Virus genome (UHGV): UHGV-0091736
Length of the DNA stretch: 64,000 nucleotides
Reading direction: 5' to 3' (one strand)
Source: a virus
Numbering within the stretch: position 1 is the first letter of the stretch; every line of letters starts with the position of its first letter. This document shows positions 534 through 36,323 of the stretch, one piece after another. The position numbers and the translations under genes are program-made. The notes under the pieces are model-generated. The model did no database searches and was not told the origin of the DNA. It saw only the letters and a list, made by a program, of their open reading frames with translations.

Positions 534-2225
534 ATGCATATCAATTACCTTAGCACAACGAACTCCATCCTTCTCAATCCACTTGTTAAGGAACATCATA
601 GCGTATTTCATAACAACAGCACCAGCACATTGCAGGAGTGTGTTAAGTGCTTTATGAACCATAACTTTACCAGTGGCATCTCGTCTCATTGTAATCTTGC
701 GACCATCAACACCAATCAAGTACCCTTGAGCAGCTTTCTCTGTCATGCGATCAATGAGGATTGCAATACATGGGTTCTCTGCCAAGAAACGTGCTCGCAT
801 CACTGAACCTTCATCAGCCCCGCCACCTACAATTGAACCAAGCTTAGCATCACCAGCACCATAGTTGAATGCATAGATAAATGTCTTAGCATTGTCACGA
901 GTAGGGAGACCAGCAAGTTTCTGGTTGTGGGAGTGGATATCCCCTTCGAGGAGAATATCACGATACATAATAGCAGAAGCTAAACCGCGTTCTGCCAGAG
1001 CTTTCTTAGCTGGATTATTCTCTTCGATTGCTTCAGCAAGCATATCTCTACATTCTTTGATGAGGTAGTGAGCGAGCATACGAAGTTCAAGTCCAGAACC
1101 ATCATACCCTAAGAATACTTCTTTACCAGCGGGTATGTAATATTTGTAAGCACCTACAGGTTTGTCTTTCTTCCCCGGCTTACCTTTCTCGTAAATTACG
1201 TTAGTACCTTTTCGTATATAACAACCATCAGGAACAACGTTAGTAATAACGAAAGGACGAGAGTGATCACTGTCTGAGTTATAGTCAGACTCAAACAAAC
1301 TGCGACACTCGTGACCAAACAAACCACGGGAGGGAATATTAACCACGATACGATGTTTGAATCGAAAAGTCGGCGTAGCGCAGCTGTTAGCTTCTGCCGA
1401 AAGTTTACCATCTTCGCGTTCCTTTGCTATAAGTCCACTGATAAGACCTAGCCTGTGAGCCGCTACAACACGTCTCTTAAGCAAACTTCCAACACTCCCT
1501 AGCTCACCCCCTAACCCTTCTTCAAGAGTCTCCTCGAGGTTTGTAGGAGCTGTAGGCCACTTGTTTGATGTAGCTAGTGCTTTCTTAATCTCATCAAACG
1601 TTACAGGGTTACGGCGATTAGGGTTTAATCCCAAACCAAACACGTAAGCCTTCATGTAATTCTTAGTCTTAAACCTAAAATGCTTTTCTAAGAATTTCTT
1701 GATATCAGCGTCAACCATCTCGGCTGTCTGCTTCTGCTTAGCACTGCCTCTCATCCAAGCAGTGTACCAAGCCTGATATGTTCCATACTTTCGCATGTCT
1801 TTCTTAATTTCGAAAGTATTCCAAGGCTTCTTAGATACGTTAAACTCTGGAGGAAGAAAGCCCTCATCCATAAGAGCTTCTTTAACTCGTGCATCTTTCG
1901 ATGGGTCAAAGTCTACATATTCTACACAGGTGAATGCTCCACCAATGTCTTCTCTCTTCAGCCCAACCCTATCACAATAAGCTTGAGGCCACTTCTGCAA
2001 AGCACCAGACTTCTTAAACGGCTTCATGTAAGTAGAGCCATCTAATCTCATCTTAGGTAAGAGAGGAATCAACTCTCTATCAATATTAACAATAATCTCT
2101 TTAAGGAGGTGAACATACCACCGAGCATTTCTTCGGTTGAAACTCACTCCGTGCTTTGCTTGCTTAGAGATTATATCAGCGACAGTCATCTCTGTCAAAA
2201 ATGGAAGAGCGTCCGGGTTGCTCAC
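534..2225 (-). CDS. DNA polymerase family A, polymerase domain, exon 1 (GTG start; ends at H of motif C HDE)
   Basis: Motif A LGYDGSGLELRMLAHY and motif B RDNAKTFIYAFNYGAG. AAGGAG RBS 7 nt before the GTG. ORF track 504-2225, trimmed to the predicted 5' splice site. Confidence 0.85.
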
Positions 2226-3629: not shown

Positions 3630-5348
3630 TTAAGCTTTCTTTTCCATTGCTTTAACAATCGCCTTACAGAAACCAGAACGAACAATATCATCTGATTCAC
3701 CATCTACAATCTCAGCAAACTCATACAGATCATGTTCATCAATAAAGTTAGTAGCCCAAGTAAGACCACTCTCACGACCACGCATATCATGCTGGTTAGT
3801 ATCACCCATGCAGAACAGCTGAGAGGTTTCTCCCAATCGAGTCATGATTGAGAAGGCTTCATCTTTAGTTGTGTTCTGGAACTCATCCACGATAACAATG
3901 GCATCATTGAAAGAGCGACCACGGAGATATTCCAGAGGTACAAATTCAATGTTACCATTTCCGATTTGGCATTCATAGAACCCCTTACCATATCGCTGAG
4001 TAATAACATCAATGATAGGCATCAGGTATGGTTCAAACTTCTCACGCATCCCCCCCGGAAGTAACCCAAGAGAGTTACCCATGCCGACCGAAGGGCGACT
4101 CAGAATGATCTTCTGAATCTTACCACTCTTCAGTGCATCAATAACTGTGGAAGTGATTACAAAGGTCTTACCACAGTTACCTGTCACGAAAATGTTATCA
4201 TCTCGACGGAGCAACAGAGCACCTGTTGAGGTTGTAAAGCAATATTTAAAACCATCCTCCGTCTTCATCTTTGTGATCACAGCTTTCCCAGATTGTGGGT
4301 TGTTTGGGGTAATACTGATATGTGTCTGTTTAGAGAAATAAACACGATACTCTAGAGATTTACGAGTATATCCACCATACTCCCGACCAACTCTGTCGTA
4401 AGTTATGATAGATGATTTGTAACCACACTGCATTCCTACAAACTGGATATAGTCTGCATCATCTTTATCGGAAGTAAAGAAAGGTGGTAGTCTATTTCCT
4501 TGTAGGGCAAAACCCCCGTCCCAGAATTTAATCTCATCAAAGATGATTTTAGCATCACTCTTGTTACACAAAGGCCAGTCTTTATACCTTTTAGTCGCAC
4601 CTAGAAGAGAGAAAGATATTACATGAAACCCTGTATCATCTGACTTTTCTGAGTAATCTAAATGGAGAGTATCCAATAACTCTTTGAGTCGAGAAATCTT
4701 CCTCTCTTTCTTTAATCTGAAGACGAATCGCGAGGTGGACTCTGTTTCCAAGTGGGCATCAGCCTTGATGGCAACATGAAGACGTAATTCAGGTTCAGAT
4801 AGACCTAAACTTTTCCCTGAAACAAAGTTGGATGTAGTTTTAATTAGACCCTCAAACCCTATCTTCTTCTTGTGGTGCCTTGAAAGAAGATCAGATACCT
4901 TGATTTTGTTCGCTTTGTCTTTATCTCCCTTACGATAATAAACGACATTATGGTCATCACATAACGCCTGAGATATCCCACGGTATGTTTTAAACAAGTT
5001 CAACTCTTTACACTCTTGTTTAATATAAGCTACAGGTTTTTCTAAATGAGACTCTCCTGTGGTTAAGTTTACTGCTGTTATTAAATCACCTTCCACATAG
5101 TCAGAAATCTTTTTCCATCCAAACTCTGAGAGAAACTCGGTATCCTTATCAACACAGCCCGCAGGAGCGTCTGTGAACACAACTTGTTTAGTCTTAATAG
5201 CATTGAGTAGCTCAGACTGAAACTGGTTCTGAGGGACTACAGGCTTTGCTAAAACCACCTCTTCATACTCTCGCTTACCCTTACGAGTAACAAGTGCTTC
5301 CCGACGAAGGTCTTTCCGTGATTCTTTCCTTGATTGACGACGACTCAT
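3630..5348 (-). CDS. phoH: PhoH-like ATPase precursor containing an intein
   Basis: Walker A is split as ..DAPAG | intein | CGKTFV... The C-terminal part has ILSRP, LLPG, IVIVDEFQN (Walker B) and GD..Q, as in PhoH. Confidence 0.8.
   Translation of the reverse strand: MSRRQSRKESRKDLRREALVTRKGKREYEEVVLAKPVVPQNQFQSELLNAIKTKQVVFTDAPAGCVDKDTEFLSEFGWKKISDYVEGDLITAVNLTTGESHLEKPVAYIKQECKELNLFKTYRGISQALCDDHNVVYYRKGDKDKANKIKVSDLLSRHHKKKIGFEGLIKTTSNFVSGKSLGLSEPELRLHVAIKADAHLETESTSRFVFRLKKERKISRLKELLDTLHLDYSEKSDDTGFHVISFSLLGATKRYKDWPLCNKSDAKIIFDEIKFWDGGFALQGNRLPPFFTSDKDDADYIQFVGMQCGYKSSIITYDRVGREYGGYTRKSLEYRVYFSKQTHISITPNNPQSGKAVITKMKTEDGFKYCFTTSTGALLLRRDDNIFVTGNCGKTFVITSTVIDALKSGKIQKIILSRPSVGMGNSLGLLPGGMREKFEPYLMPIIDVITQRYGKGFYECQIGNGNIEFVPLEYLRGRSFNDAIVIVDEFQNTTKDEAFSIMTRLGETSQLFCMGDTNQHDMRGRESGLTWATNFIDEHDLYEFAEIVDGESDDIVRSGFCKAIVKAMEKKA
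4176..5156 (-). mobile_element. Intein (327 aa) in the PhoH P-loop, with degenerate LAGLIDADG-like endonuclease region
   Basis: Starts CVDKDTEFL (block A-like) and ends ..NIFVTGN followed by +1 Cys. Excision restores APAGCGKT. Candidate dodecapeptides are LHVAIKADAHL and FDEIKFWDGGF. Confidence 0.7.
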
Positions 5349-27781: not shown

Positions 27782-27858
27782 TGGCGCACCGTGTAGGACT
27801 CCAACCTACAACCTATTTCTTAGAAGGAAATTGCTCTCTGCAATTGAGCTAACGGCGC
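27782..27858 (-). tRNA. tRNA-Arg (anticodon UCU), CCA encoded
   Basis: Hand-folded cloverleaf: GCGCCGT/ACGGTGC acceptor, GCTC/GAGC D stem, ATTTC-CTTCTAA-GAAAT anticodon arm, GTAGG-TTGGAGT-CCTAC T arm, G, CCA. 77 nt. Confidence 0.85.
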
Positions 27859-32846: not shown

Positions 32847-33746
32847 TTATGCCGCTTGACGTGCTGCCATAATCTCAGCTGCCTTGCGTAATACTTCTTC
32901 TTCTTCTGCTTTCGCCGCTTGTTCAGTACGGGTAGCAACCGTTGAAGAGATACGACCGCGCAGGTTATCTAACTTCTCCTGCATAGCTGAAACAGCTTTT
33001 TCCATTTCATCAGCATAGGAGTCTAGAGATTCCAGTTCCTTGCTTGATGCGTTCATCAGATAATCATCGGAGATCGCTACCGTTGAAGCCGTAACTTTCT
33101 TGATGAGTGAGTCGAAAGACTTTTTAACCTTCCCAACTTCTTCACTCAAGGCAATAGTGTTATCGCTAGTTGCGCCGTTGCGCTCATCTGCCAGCAATTT
33201 AGATTCAATACGGATGGCATTCAAGCGTTCAACCAAAGCGTAAATATCTTGGTTAAAATCTTCCTTGTTTTTCGCCGGAATTTGCAGGTGTGCCGCCACG
33301 TTGTCATTGCAACCTTTGTAGAAGTTAGGATTATCCACTTCAATTGCACGACCTAAAGCAAAGTTTTCGAAAGCATTTGACCAGCGAGCGCGGTTTTGTT
33401 CCATTTTGGTTTTAATTTGCGCTTCTTTCGCATCTTCTTTCGCTTTCGCTTCACCTTCCAGATTAATCCACTTCTTACGACCGTTCGCCGCATCAGTGTT
33501 AAACTTGATAGGAGTTAAGAAAGTGATCGCGGTAGAAATAACATCCATATCGCGGAAACGTTCAGTTAACAGAAAATCAACAGCCGCTTGTAATACGTCC
33601 AGCTTCTTACCGTTGCTGCGGAAGTGCTGTAAGTGCCCTAACAGGAAGTTAGAAACATCTTGCTTAATCGCTGCGTTATTGCTGCGGATGTTGTTAGCCA
33701 GAGCGTTAAAACCAGATTCGTTAACCAGATTAAAGATTTTAGCCAT
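32847..33746 (-). CDS. hypothetical helical protein (299 aa); first gene after the long leader
   Basis: AAGGTG SD 7 nt before the ATG at 33746. The ORF track GTG at 33755 lies inside the SD. Confidence 0.6.
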   Translation of the reverse strand: MAKIFNLVNESGFNALANNIRSNNAAIKQDVSNFLLGHLQHFRSNGKKLDVLQAAVDFLLTERFRDMDVISTAITFLTPIKFNTDAANGRKKWINLEGEAKAKEDAKEAQIKTKMEQNRARWSNAFENFALGRAIEVDNPNFYKGCNDNVAAHLQIPAKNKEDFNQDIYALVERLNAIRIESKLLADERNGATSDNTIALSEEVGKVKKSFDSLIKKVTASTVAISDDYLMNASSKELESLDSYADEMEKAVSAMQEKLDNLRGRISSTVATRTEQAAKAEEEEVLRKAAEIMAARQAA

Positions 33747-34568
33747 GATATTCACCTTTCAATTGTAAGGGCGCTATTGCCCCGCTCTCTATGAGCTTGT
33801 TTAAGTCACTATTAACTTAACTCTAACCACTCACTTTTTAAGTAGTTACAGGTAAGCGGGGCGGTCTTATCAGGAGTTAACCTTGCCGCCCCCTTATCCG
33901 TGATGTTTCATCTGGTATCTTTAATTAGTCGCTATAAATAAAGCCGACCTGATAGCGATGATCAATCATCACAATAAGGCAGTGCGTCCGACTCTAATTA
34001 GTTACGTTTATTGTAACCGTCGGCAATATCGTCTACTTTGCTTTCGCTCTCGCCTATCCTTTTGTATTAACTCTCAATCGCTAGTCATCGCCCACTACGG
34101 GATACTATTGCGAAAGAGTCATTAACCGTCTAATATTCCGACGTTTTATATCTTTCAGCGAGTTTACTACATAAACCGACTATGTACTTTCATCATAAGA
34201 CGAATCTCAAGCCGTTCACATCGTAAACGTTCACACTAAACCTTATTGTTAAATAGCAATTTGCCACTTTTTAACCGCTCCCCGCCGCCCTCAATTGGGC
34301 GTTAATTTGTCGGACTTGTCTACCCTGATTAACTTCTTTCACTGTAGCGCCTTGTTAGCGATGACCGCCGCTACCCTTAACCGTGGGCGATTAGCTTAAG
34401 CCTTTGCGTGCACTCAGTGAATCCGTTTATCAGTGGTGACGTTTCCAGTAAGGGATTGCAAGACTGTTTCCTCTGATAGTTTAGAGAGCCTTACATCGTT
34501 TTATCTGGTACGCTTTCCGATGGTTATTATCATCAAGCATATTCAACCGATATAGAAGAACGTTTAAA

Positions 34569-34582
34569 TTGTTAAAGAGCGG
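34569..34582 (-). promoter_or_regulatory. boxA-like antitermination element 1 (CCGCTCTTTAACAA)
   Basis: GCTCTTTAACAATTTA is a 16-nt identity to the E. coli rrn leader boxA region as I recall it. Preceded by hairpin AGCGTG-AGTAAA-CACGCT. Confidence 0.6.
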
Positions 34583-34671
34583 TAAATCTATCAGCGTGTT
34601 TACTCACGCTATGCAACTGTTAGCCGTTGTCTCGCTTTTCACTTAAGCGGTGATTTGCTTAGTGAGTGCTC

Positions 34672-34700
34672 ATTATGAATCATGTTGTTTTAGCTGTCAA
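34672..34700 (-). promoter_or_regulatory. strong sigma70 promoter (TTGACA-N17-CATAAT)
   Basis: -35 at 34695-34700 and -10 at 34672-34677, read on the minus strand. Confidence 0.7.
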
Positions 34701-34802
34701 CCACTTTTTTAATCTTTTTCGTCGTTCCCATTATCGGGAGGATATACCAATCAGCTTTATTTGATTGGAGATTAAGCGGTGATGCTTAACTTATGATTCA
34801 TA

Positions 34803-34816
34803 TTGTTAAAGAGCGG
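34803..34816 (-). promoter_or_regulatory. boxA-like element 2 (CCGCTCTTTAACAA)
   Basis: Exact repeat of element 1. Preceded by hairpin AGCTAACAC-GAT-GTGTTAAGCT. Confidence 0.6.
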
Positions 34817-34932
34817 TTACTACATTCACAGCTTAACACATCGTGTTAGCTTGTCAACTCTTTCTATCGTCTTCTTTTTCTCTCTCTCCCTCTGTCTCGC
34901 GTGAATCTATGCGAAAGGGCAAGACGATCAGT

Positions 34933-34946
34933 TTTTAAAGAGCGGG
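34933..34946 (-). promoter_or_regulatory. boxA-like element 3 (CCCGCTCTTTAAAAA)
   Basis: About 25-35 nt downstream of the predicted TSS of the 34978-35006 promoter. Confidence 0.55.
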
Positions 34947-34977
34947 GATTTTTTAAGTCATCGCTGACTGAGTGCTC

Positions 34978-35006
34978 ATTATGAATCAGGCTTTTTCCGG
35001 TGTCAA
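34978..35006 (-). promoter_or_regulatory. strong sigma70 promoter (TTGACA-N17-CATAAT), near-duplicate of 34672-34700
   Basis: -35 at 35001-35006 and -10 at 34978-34983. Shares GATTCATAATGAGCACTCA with the other copy. Confidence 0.7.
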
Positions 35007-35042
35007 TACTCTTTTTAAGAATATTTTCACTTTTTAGCCTGA

Positions 35043-35056
35043 TTTTTAAGGAGCGG
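35043..35056 (-). promoter_or_regulatory. boxA-like element 4 (CCGCTCCTTAAAAA, degenerate)
   Basis: One substitution in the core relative to GCTCTTTAA. Confidence 0.4.
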
Positions 35057-35232
35057 TTGAAGTCTCTCTCTTCACGGGGTATTGCGTAGTTCCCAACGTT
35101 CTCTGCCACCGCGCTATAGGTAGTGGCTTAGTATCCGACAATCAGACCTTCTTCACTCGGTGAAGCCCGGCCCCTCAATTTACTGTTAGTGAGGCGGTTA
35201 CAGTGTACCTGCTACCGATTCCGTGGTGGCGT

Positions 35233-35260
35233 CTTACTGCTTGTTGCTTACTGCTTACTA
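35233..35260 (-). repeat. four tandem heptamers (minus: TAGTAAG CAGTAAG CAACAAG CAGTAAG)
   Basis: Plus strand reads CTTACTG CTTGTTG CTTACTG CTTACTA. Starts at the predicted TSS of the 35269-35296 promoter. Confidence 0.6.
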
Positions 35261-35268
35261 CGGGATTC

Positions 35269-35296
35269 ATATTACTATACAGGAAAACCCTGTCAA
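35269..35296 (-). promoter_or_regulatory. sigma70 promoter (TTGACA-N16-TAATAT)
   Basis: Read on the minus strand. Confidence 0.55.
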
Positions 35297-35382
35297 TACC
35301 CTTTTTTCAAATTATTTTTCATCTCACTGTTTTCTAAAGGAATTTATTTTATTGTCAGTAGGACACCGGAAGGAATCAGGAG

Positions 35383-35395
35383 GTAAAAGAGCGGG
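35383..35395 (-). promoter_or_regulatory. boxA-like element 5 (CCCGCTCTTTTAC; lambda-nut-like CGCTCTTxxAC)
   Basis: Read on the minus strand. Lies between the 35.5-kb terminator and the 35.29-kb promoter. Confidence 0.35.
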
Positions 35396-35493
35396 AGCGC
35401 GTGATACATCACAGGAAACGGCTTGTAAAGCAGTAATAAGCGTCCTAAAACGCATCACAACGAGCTAAAAGGGAGTAAGGCATACAATCACCT

Positions 35494-35524
35494 TAGAAAA
35501 TAGAAAAGCCTCTTAATGAGGCTT
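35494..35524 (-). terminator. Rho-independent terminator (minus)
   Basis: AAGCCUC-AUUAA-GAGGCUU then UUCUAUUUUC. Follows the 35601 stop. Confidence 0.6.
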
Positions 35525-35600
35525 ACAGGAAGGATTTAAAGCATCAGATAGATTATGACCATAGGCATGACCACGGCACAATACAGGAGAAAGATTAAGC

Positions 35601-35966
35601 CTATGGATTTACACATTGACCGTTACCGGATTCTACTTCGTTCATGGACTCATCAAAGAGTGTCAACGATGAGCGCATCAGGTGATCGACCGTGATTTGT
35701 TTACCAGTGGTTTCATTTACTAATAGAATAGTTTTACTATCTGATTGCACATGTTCGAAATCATTTACATGTAAAATAATAACTTTAGGTGACTTTTTAC
35801 CAGTGTCATAATTCTCAATCAAATAGGTGCACTGTAAACCGTCAACCGTAGCAGGGGAAAACGTTGCAGCCCTTACGCTACCCAAAGATGATAGCAGGAC
35901 ACCTAACAGGAGAACAACCAGAAAGAAGCCTACAACCATTTTAACTAAGAATTTAATAAACCACAT
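35601..35966 (-). CDS. secreted/membrane-anchored hypothetical protein (121 aa from MWFIKF..)
   Basis: N-terminal hydrophobic segment VVGFFLVVLLLGVLLSSLGSVRA. The ORF track start at 36053 is less likely. Confidence 0.5.
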   Translation of the reverse strand: MWFIKFLVKMVVGFFLVVLLLGVLLSSLGSVRAATFSPATVDGLQCTYLIENYDTGKKSPKVIILHVNDFEHVQSDSKTILLVNETTGKQITVDHLMRSSLTLFDESMNEVESGNGQCVNP

Positions 35967-36059
35967 AGCAATCAACCTTTTAGTTAAAGAACGTAAGAGT
36001 AAAGCATATCGGCGACGAATAGCGCCACTGTAGCAACGAATAAACACCGCCAAAAATAA

Positions 36060-36323
36060 TCATTCTTCATCATTGCCTTTACCTTCAAAGAGTGATACTC
36101 TAAGCAATTTAATTTCTTCCAGTGACAGAAGAATCCCACGTTGCGCCAGATAATGACCAGCTTTAACATCATCCATAATTAGAGCGACGGCAGGAAATTC
36201 TACCGCATTAATATTATCGCCACCAACAAACAAGATCAGACACTTGTCAGAATTGTCAGTATATGAGAAATCAATATCCCCATAGTTATGAGTAGGGATA
36301 GTGTAACTATGTTCTTTAGCCAT
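36060..36323 (-). CDS. hypothetical protein (87 aa)
   Basis: ORF track. Confidence 0.5.
   Translation of the reverse strand: MAKEHSYTIPTHNYGDIDFSYTDNSDKCLILFVGGDNINAVEFPAVALIMDDVKAGHYLAQRGILLSLEEIKLLRVSLFEGKGNDEE

Follow-up and report, generated by a model that had tools for sequence, protein, structure and literature searches.

In the ribosomal RNA (rrn) operons of E. coli and in phage lambda, boxA on the nascent RNA is a binding site for NusB-S10, and the Nus complex keeps Rho from acting where RNA is left untranslated. The lambda nut sites join boxA to a boxB hairpin that is bound by the N protein; in E. coli the boxB hairpin and boxC companions of boxA are not essential. The put RNA of phage HK022 consists of two stem-loops just past the early promoters, acts in cis and makes RNA polymerase resistant to terminators. 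Phage T7 has three strong tandem host-type promoters (A1-A3) near its genome end, followed on the transcript by an exact GCTCTTTAACAA 63 nucleotides (nt) past the A3 start and before gene 0.3; we know of no functional explanation for this boxA so far. The authors of the phiEco32 transcription study write of the related Salmonella phage 7-11 that an antitermination strategy "remains to be defined". Here we analyse UHGV-0091736, 64,000 nt of viral DNA (the window), which belongs to a phiEco32-like phage (Kuravirus). Its array of promoters and boxA elements lies in a spacer of about 1.85 kb, free of open reading frames (ORFs), which is bounded by the end of the gp125 homolog at 35601 and by the start codon (ATG) of the gp124 homolog at 33746. 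We observe in this spacer conserved motifs with a strand bias, a mosaic of cassettes and a structured leader RNA. The spacer is probably the early-promoter array of a podovirus in which a boxA on each nascent RNA renders the host polymerase resistant to Rho across the untranslated leader and the early operon.

Positions 33700-35700 match phiEco32, SU10, Paul and more than 100 further phages of Kuravirus and Suseptimavirus, with 90-94% identity in the best records. Across the spacer itself the identity to phiEco32, SU10 and others is 91-94%, and the counterpart stretch in phiEco32 is the spacer between genes 125 and 124. The flanking genes on both sides are all on the minus strand, on which every element of the array also reads. 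Three co-oriented promoters stand within 625 bp of the ORF-free spacer and point at the gp124 operon, namely P3 (TTGACA-16-TAATAT, 35296 to 35269, 10/12 consensus matches), P2 (TTGACA-17-CATAAT, 35006 to 34978, 11/12) and P1 (TTGACA-17-CATAAT, 34700 to 34672, 11/12), the last one ahead of the leader. Their hexamers are 17 bp (P1 and P2) or 16 bp (P3) apart, within the 16-18 bp of sigma70 promoters, and A-rich UP-like tracts accompany P2 and P3. An initial annotation, which had proposed tandem sigma70 early promoters in this region, placed the same two CATAAT promoters and the TAATAT promoter at 35269-35296, and all three are indeed there. The sharing of an extended block that it saw in P1 and P2 is confirmed: a 20-mer, TGATTCATAATGAGCACTCA, is exactly the same in both and forms part of a direct repeat (34657-34712 and 34963-35018), 56 nt long and 77% identical.

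As such, these promoters are not new; they have been published as early promoters for the phiEco32 group, and in the SU10 paper host-type early promoters are listed for this very spacer. That paper gives three sigma70 promoters between the flanking genes (SU10 CDS120/121), "like phage phiEco32", and one more upstream of the first early unit, which closes at a terminator (PMC4281155). Its supplementary table contains the P1 and P2 homologs as entries 73511 and 73996 and, as entry 73668 with the comment "alt -10?", the counterpart of a further TTGACA at 34857-34852 (PMC4281155). In the literature searched, to which the primary phiEco32 papers did not belong, we found no mention of boxA together with phiEco32, and within that scope the pairing of promoters with boxA, the structured leader and the exchangeable modules described below appear to be undescribed.

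Promoters and boxA elements were mapped in 12 phages of two genera, Kuravirus and Suseptimavirus (the window, phiEco32, SU10, ECBP2, NJ01, KBNP1711, PAS59, TH43, SU7, Bas86, EK010 and IMEP8), and the first six of these were aligned over the whole spacer. P1 is the best conserved promoter, present in 12/12 phages at -941 to -955 from the gp124 ATG. P2 is kept in the window and its five aligned relatives. P3 occurs in the window, phiEco32, SU10 and EK010 and is missing from ECBP2, NJ01 and KBNP1711, that is, from three of the six aligned phages; its -10-proximal sequence TATGAATCCC recalls the early promoters found in Bucovirus-like phages and in Kayfunavirus. The TTGACA at 34857-34852 exists as annotated, but the label of orphan given to it does not hold. 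It lies at -1111 from the ATG, the very position at which PAS59 has an intact TTGACA-16-TAGAAT, and TH43, EK010 and SU7 carry the intact promoter at -1113 to -1117. Given this positional alignment, it is the -35 hexamer of a decayed fourth promoter. Just past it, AATGTA, the core of the promoter motif of the phage sigma factor (gp36), is found at 34821-34826 (minus strand) inside GTGAATGTAGTAA; it is kept in four of the six aligned sequences and could be there by chance. The half-palindrome TGATTCAT/ATGAATCA, annotated four times, is exact at 34675-34682, 34794-34801 and 34981-34988, and its fourth copy, at about 35265-35271, matches at 7/8 positions only. In the window as a whole it occurs 8 times, where 3.75 +/- 2.1 occurrences are expected and 3 of 100 shuffles reach 8, and two of the copies are not independent because both sit in the P1/P2 duplication. 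An operator role for this sequence was rejected, as presence in that duplication and beside -10 boxes is all that speaks for it.

For boxA we used the gamma-proteobacterial consensus GYTCTTTAANA, genetically derived in E. coli (PMC5725501). Exact matches on the minus strand lie at 34943-34933, 34814-34804 and 34580-34570, three in about 400 bp, where 0.45 would be expected across the whole 64-kb window. They belong to the boxA elements CGCTCTTTAAAAA at 34932-34944 and CGCTCTTTAACAA at both 34803-34815 and 34569-34581, the latter about 84 nt past the P1 start and matching the consensus in 12/12 phages mapped. The 13-mer CGCTCTTTAACAA is the same as the boxA of T7 and 12/13 identical to that of rrn; copies of it with one to three mismatches stand at 34944, 35055, 34258 and 35393 (minus strand). 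The copy at 35055 is a boxA-like CGCTCCTTAAAAA (35043-35055), one mismatch away from GYTCTTTAANA; the homologous position in phiEco32 and SU10 has the exact consensus. The copy at 34258 is a degenerate TGCTATTTAACAA (34246-34258) with C4 changed to A; it is kept in 12/12 phages, though its function is doubtful. The segment beside it, 34275-34258, is predicted to pair with the region of the true boxA at 34588-34571; no covariation is seen in that helix, which therefore stays a prediction.

In each of the 12 phages promoters alternate with boxA, and a boxA follows every promoter of the spacer. There are four to six copies per spacer, exact save for a few with a single mismatch; all lie on the transcribed strand, and the other strand has none in any of the 12 spacers. 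The element is thus conserved among relatives although its flanks vary, the modules from one copy to the next being different. A hairpin, read from the sequence, precedes each boxA that follows a promoter (35055, 34944, 34815 and 34581) and ends 1-14 nt before it. The idea of a boxA in the array was already part of the initial annotation and is strongly supported by this regular pairing, on the transcribed strand as in T7. Its recurring TAAGC/GCUUA hairpin is likewise real, with an exact 12-mer, TTAAGCGGTGAT, of UUAAGC-loop-GCUUAA at 34643-34654 and 34772-34783. The second site belongs to a hairpin UUAAGC-AUCACC-GCUUAA (34772-34789, minus strand) located 14 nt past the boxA at 34815-34803, the stem of which is present in five of the six aligned sequences and imperfect in NJ01, and the loop of which varies. 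Inspection of the sequence also suggests a small hairpin (GUCA-GCGA-UGAC, 34957-34968, minus strand) where the P2 transcript is predicted to begin.

By analogy, then, the arrangement is of a known kind, that of T7 A1-A3 plus boxA and of the rrn control region. Like T7, the phage has, close to a genome end, a tandem of three strong promoters of the host type, and the transcript then carries the identical GCTCTTTAACAA. T7, however, belongs to another phage family and has its own RNA polymerase, which the present phage lacks, having a sigma factor instead; it has one boxA after its last promoter and a leader of about 175 nt, whereas here each promoter has a boxA and the leader measures about 0.9-1.5 kb. 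In the E. coli rrn operons, tandem promoters P1-P2 with UP elements precede a boxB-boxA-boxC leader; with them the array shares tandem strong promoters, A-rich upstream tracts, a hairpin and then boxA, and a long untranslated structured transcript that would otherwise be a target of Rho. It differs from them in having no recognised boxC and no sequence similarity to E. coli DNA, and in that protein-coding genes follow the RNA. The CGCTCTT-type boxA near an early promoter, and the hairpin 34789-34772 that follows the boxA 34815-34803 at 14 nt, recall lambda nutL and nutR; yet the loop here has 6 nt and varies among relatives, unlike a GNRA-like pentaloop, and the signals would have to act at time zero with host factors alone.

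We propose that once the right genome end is inside the cell, the three near-consensus sigma70 promoters with their A-rich upstream tracts would fire leftward, at a time when only host factors would be at the disposal of the phage. Downstream of each promoter a boxA of the rrn, lambda and T7 type, usually right behind a small hairpin, would appear on the nascent RNA and bind host NusB-S10. Together with NusA, NusG and SuhB, this could turn the host polymerase into an rrn-type Rho-resistant elongation complex, able to cross the leader and then the long early operon. Such protection would be needed because the transcripts traverse about 0.9-1.5 kb of untranslated structured RNA before the first start codon and a long operon after it. 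The expected role of boxA is to protect long untranslated RNA from termination by Rho, not to add to promoter strength.

Could the promoters be real and the boxA-like repeats nevertheless act without Nus? They might be DNA sites for protein binding, upstream promoter elements or recombination joints, or else inert remnants. The boxA copies are located at the borders of cassettes, and it is at a boxA that the module swap of the window stops. One copy, 35055-35043, stands beside the A-rich tract of P2, some 40-50 nt upstream of the -35 hexamer of that promoter, and there are more copies than a single downstream boxA would require; moreover, phage 7-11 copes without a consensus boxA. Nevertheless, a DNA site hardly accounts for the strict strand bias, and the distance from boxA to the next promoter varies (about 37, 75 and 103 nt), which fits a promoter-proximal DNA site poorly. 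Three copies exactly match the consensus genetically defined as functional in E. coli (PMC5725501), two have the GCTCTTTAACAA core of the T7 boxA, and the motif is missing at the one early promoter of the region that serves a translated unit. This promoter, of the gp128 type (TTGACA-16-TATAGT, 37278 to 37251, minus strand), reaches its unit through a leader of about 38 nt without boxA and so provides an internal contrast. We consider it unlikely that the boxA copies work in such a Nus-independent way.

Promoter activity in this phage, the binding of Nus factors and the anti-Rho role are what we infer, the part of boxA by analogy with rrn operons and lambda, and several points weigh against boxA-mediated protection from Rho as the function of the array. 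No GU-rich run, as in an rrn-type boxC, is seen after the boxA copies, and the copy at 35055-35043 and the distal one at 34258-34246 each have one mismatch. A single boxA after P1 would suffice for all transcripts, and the extra copies may be baggage of cassette shuffling. The leader of phage 7-11 contains no consensus boxA. Finally, promoter-like matches of at least 10/12 are not enriched in the window as a whole (15 observed against 20.7 +/- 4.5 simulated). Those of at least 11/12 are in modest excess, with 5 against 1.6 +/- 1.2 simulated. Given that motif counts alone are unimpressive, the case for the promoters rests on their clustering and co-orientation in an ORF-free spacer, on conservation, on published annotation and on boxA. 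A perfect 12/12 sigma70 consensus, TTGACA-17-TATAAT, is found elsewhere in the leftward gene cluster, at 2170-2198 (minus strand).

Phage 7-11 offers a parallel. Behind its two validated strong early promoters comes an ORF-free leader of about 1.15 kb, which ends in a start codon context, ATCATGGCTAAA, like that of gp124. Since 7-11 shares the promoters and the long leader but not the consensus boxA, boxA is not a universal solution, nor the only possible one. Homology between the 7-11 and Kuravirus leaders was rejected, because two colinear nhmmer matches are non-significant (E 1.5 and 2.4), and the likeness is an architectural parallel only.

Between P1 and the gp124 start codon lies an untranslated and highly structured leader RNA of about 920 nt (33747-34665, minus strand). 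It begins, at the predicted 5' end of the P1 transcript, with a hairpin (34640-34664, minus strand) whose loop AAAUCACC is invariant in the six aligned sequences. The leader comprises three domains (about 34640-34251, 34249-33971 and 33970-33742) and is 84-95% identical to its Suseptimavirus counterparts, whereas the adjacent gp124 coding sequence shows about 75% identity and its third codon positions 57%. On the minus strand no ORF of at least 30 aa occurs between 34864 and 33756. Small hidden ORFs were considered and rejected, as the longest ORF varies by phage, most indels are of 1 nt and a 3-nt periodicity is absent. When an alignment of 10 phages was folded to a consensus in seven overlapping segments, with column shuffles as control, it yielded z-scores of -4.8 to -11.8, with 96-98% of pairs canonical and 10-24 compensatory-change pairs per segment against 0-4 when partners are slid. 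The full-length fold contains 285 pairs in 47 helices, 66 of the pairs compensatory; these values come from a structure derived from and scored on the same alignment of close relatives. Rfam gives no match at gathering thresholds in the whole window, and in 33700-35650 only chance-level ones (E >=1.9). Judged by its sequence, the leader behaves as a structured RNA whose conservation exceeds that of the neighbouring gene, and we found no published description of it.

Two further explanations concern the leader or the spacer as a whole. According to the first, what the array chiefly makes is the long structured RNA, from a non-coding gene in the style of rRNA, and gp124 expression is a by-product of read-through. 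The excess of leader conservation over that of the neighbouring gene, the three-domain structure with its extensive covariation and the resemblance of promoters plus boxA to rrn operons would all suit such a gene, and Nus complexes aid co-transcriptional folding. Yet the terminator scan detects no terminator on the minus strand between the leader and gp124, and no processing sites or stable RNA species are known; the idea is also compatible with Rho protection across leader and operon rather than exclusive of it. As a replacement for that reading we regard it as very unlikely.

Under the second explanation the spacer acts chiefly as DNA, for instance as an origin of replication or a packaging region, in which promoters provide transcriptional activation or priming and RNA structure is secondary. 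T7 origins are promoter-associated, and the spacer, close to a genome end, is large, has no ORFs and contains repeats as well as strong promoters. One of four leader segments folds slightly better as its reverse complement, but three of the four fold better on the transcribed strand, and the compensatory changes and strongly negative z-scores described above speak against this explanation. The spacer repeat analysis revealed neither iterons nor an AT-rich unwinding tract. GC skew flips at about 38 kb, away from the spacer, and an origin of replication at the spacer was rejected on this account. We hold a primary role as a DNA element to be highly improbable. The sign change itself, at about 38000, falls where the leftward and the rightward gene cluster meet, i.e., at the genome ends, the window being a permuted view of a linear genome.

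Compared among relatives, the array is a mosaic of cassettes, each made of a promoter, a leader module and a boxA. P1, its 5' hairpin and its boxA are kept in 6/6 aligned phages, and what lies between a promoter and its boxA is a swappable module, unrelated to those of other cassettes. In NJ01 the boxA-P2-boxA unit occurs a second time in tandem, at -1518 to -1189 from the ATG; therefore, cassette number changes by recombination between repeats. After the P2 boxA, phiEco32, SU10, ECBP2 and KBNP1711 have an insert of about 190 nt which is absent from the window, and ECBP2 and KBNP1711 have another insert in place of the fourth promoter. Part of this latter insert (about 150 nt, at about -1190 to -1090 from the gp124 ATG) matches phage PPWS1 (878-978) at 73%, with E = 8e-10, and phage 7-11 (1449-1519, overlapping annotated gp150) at 76%; it may be another travelling piece, RNA or small ORF. 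The initial annotation interpreted the region as a duplicated promoter, hairpin and boxA cassette. The essentials of this hold, but a simple tandem duplication does not, for the P1/P2 repeat is short and diverged, and the order of elements is promoter, hairpin, boxA at P1 and promoter, boxA, hairpin at the decayed promoter. Because the orders differ, a picture of short repeats shuffled around functional motifs that stay conserved suits the array better. Such cassettes would be duplicated, deleted and swapped by recombination at the motifs that they share.

One exchange concerns the leader of P3, in which the window differs from phiEco32 and SU10. Their spacers are homologous, with SU10 counterparts of P1, P2 and the decayed promoter, but the segment of the window from P3 to boxA is replaced by a module found otherwise in T7-like phages. 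This module (type A, 35242-35058, minus strand) is a structured RNA of about 185 nt, without a match in Rfam, and no Kuravirus record other than the window contains it. Its matches, at 76-90% identity, are in early leaders of Autographiviridae, which include, in Kayfunavirus, Mt1B1_P3 (90%), GA2A, TH20, ASO2B and the Salmonella KE and ST phages, as well as Kotilavirus PPWS1 and the Bucovirus-like Buco, phiHAO78-1 and Klebsiella phage Hope; it also occurs in five metagenome contigs and one viral contig. A sigma70-type -10 ends 5-14 nt ahead of the first base of the module in 11/14 homologs, and a consensus boxA lies within 16-18 nt past it in 9/14. A scan of bacterial genome contigs for the module pattern gave 0 matches, and among 5,426 E. 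coli genomes none has a match to the module or to the leader, for which reason mimicry of the host was rejected.

The type A structure, nine helices including one pseudoknot, was tested on 14 sequences with 500 shuffles. The pseudoknot joins 35204-35200 with 35186-35182; helices are formed by 35195-35191/35174-35170, 35141-35137/35103-35099 and 35127-35122/35110-35105, and a hairpin stands just ahead of boxA. Of the alignment cells assigned to pairs 86.6% are paired, compared with 74.4 +/- 0.9% in shuffles and 36-44% when partners are slid, and 25 pairs are changed on both sides compared with 13.5 in shuffles; 0/500 shuffles reach either value. The fold of the single sequence is not better than that of shuffles (z = +0.5), so that the structural support for type A is covariation only. 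At the same slot between P3 and boxA, phiEco32 (about 5036-5133) and SU10 have a different segment of about 100 nt, type B, which matches the Bucovirus-like phage EC22.5-2 (701-798), again at this slot. The promoter and flanks of EC22.5-2 are the same as those of phiHAO78-1 and Hope, yet it has type B in place of type A. Two unrelated module types therefore alternate at one slot in two phage families. In its position at the 5' end of the first early transcript, beside antitermination signals, type A recalls HK022 put, a likeness of position. It differs from put in being larger, in containing a pseudoknot and in being present on P3 transcripts only. One may speculate that types A and B are cis-acting antitermination RNAs, 5' stabilisers or trans-acting RNAs for host takeover or anti-defence.

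Directly ahead of the array, an intrinsic terminator (35506-35524, minus strand) closes the upstream gp128-gp125 early unit; it was found by the terminator scan, is annotated as a terminator in SU10 and is kept in the six-phage alignment. The first gene past the leader is the gp124 homolog (32847-33746, minus strand; phrog_13018), of unknown function, and the flanking genes in general fall in phage protein families without known function. RefSeq labels the gp125 homolog (35601-36053, minus strand, 150 aa) "terminase", as does PHROGs, and the gp127 homolog (36060-36323, minus strand, 87 aa) "polymerase"; both labels look like annotation carry-over. The only match of the tRNA scan, a tRNA-Arg (anticodon TCT) at 27782-27858 (minus strand), is unrelated to the spacer.

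Taken as a whole, the initial annotation is borne out in what it observed and largely in how it interpreted it, with the refinements that the array reads on the minus strand, has a decayed fourth promoter, is a mosaic and probably uses boxA against termination. The pairing of promoter and boxA gives a testable answer to the question of how host RNA polymerase, without any phage protein, would avoid Rho over more than 1 kb of untranslated RNA and then a very long early operon, and it extends the precedent of the T7 boxA to another phage family. We also put forward, tentatively and as a view that could well prove wrong, that the spacer encodes a new class of large phage RNA, produced in rRNA style from tandem strong promoters with Nus modification directed by boxA, of about 920 nt and three domains and conserved across the Gordonclarkvirinae, together with upstream swappable 5' modules (types A and B) traded between Kuravirus and Autographiviridae. 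If so, the leader of about 0.9 kb and the 5' modules would be new large structured RNAs in well-studied coliphage groups, and the leader, transcribed first, would be a hotspot of exchangeable RNA functions shared between unrelated podoviruses. Being the first to be transcribed and swappable, these RNAs could be RNA-based factors of host takeover or anti-defence.

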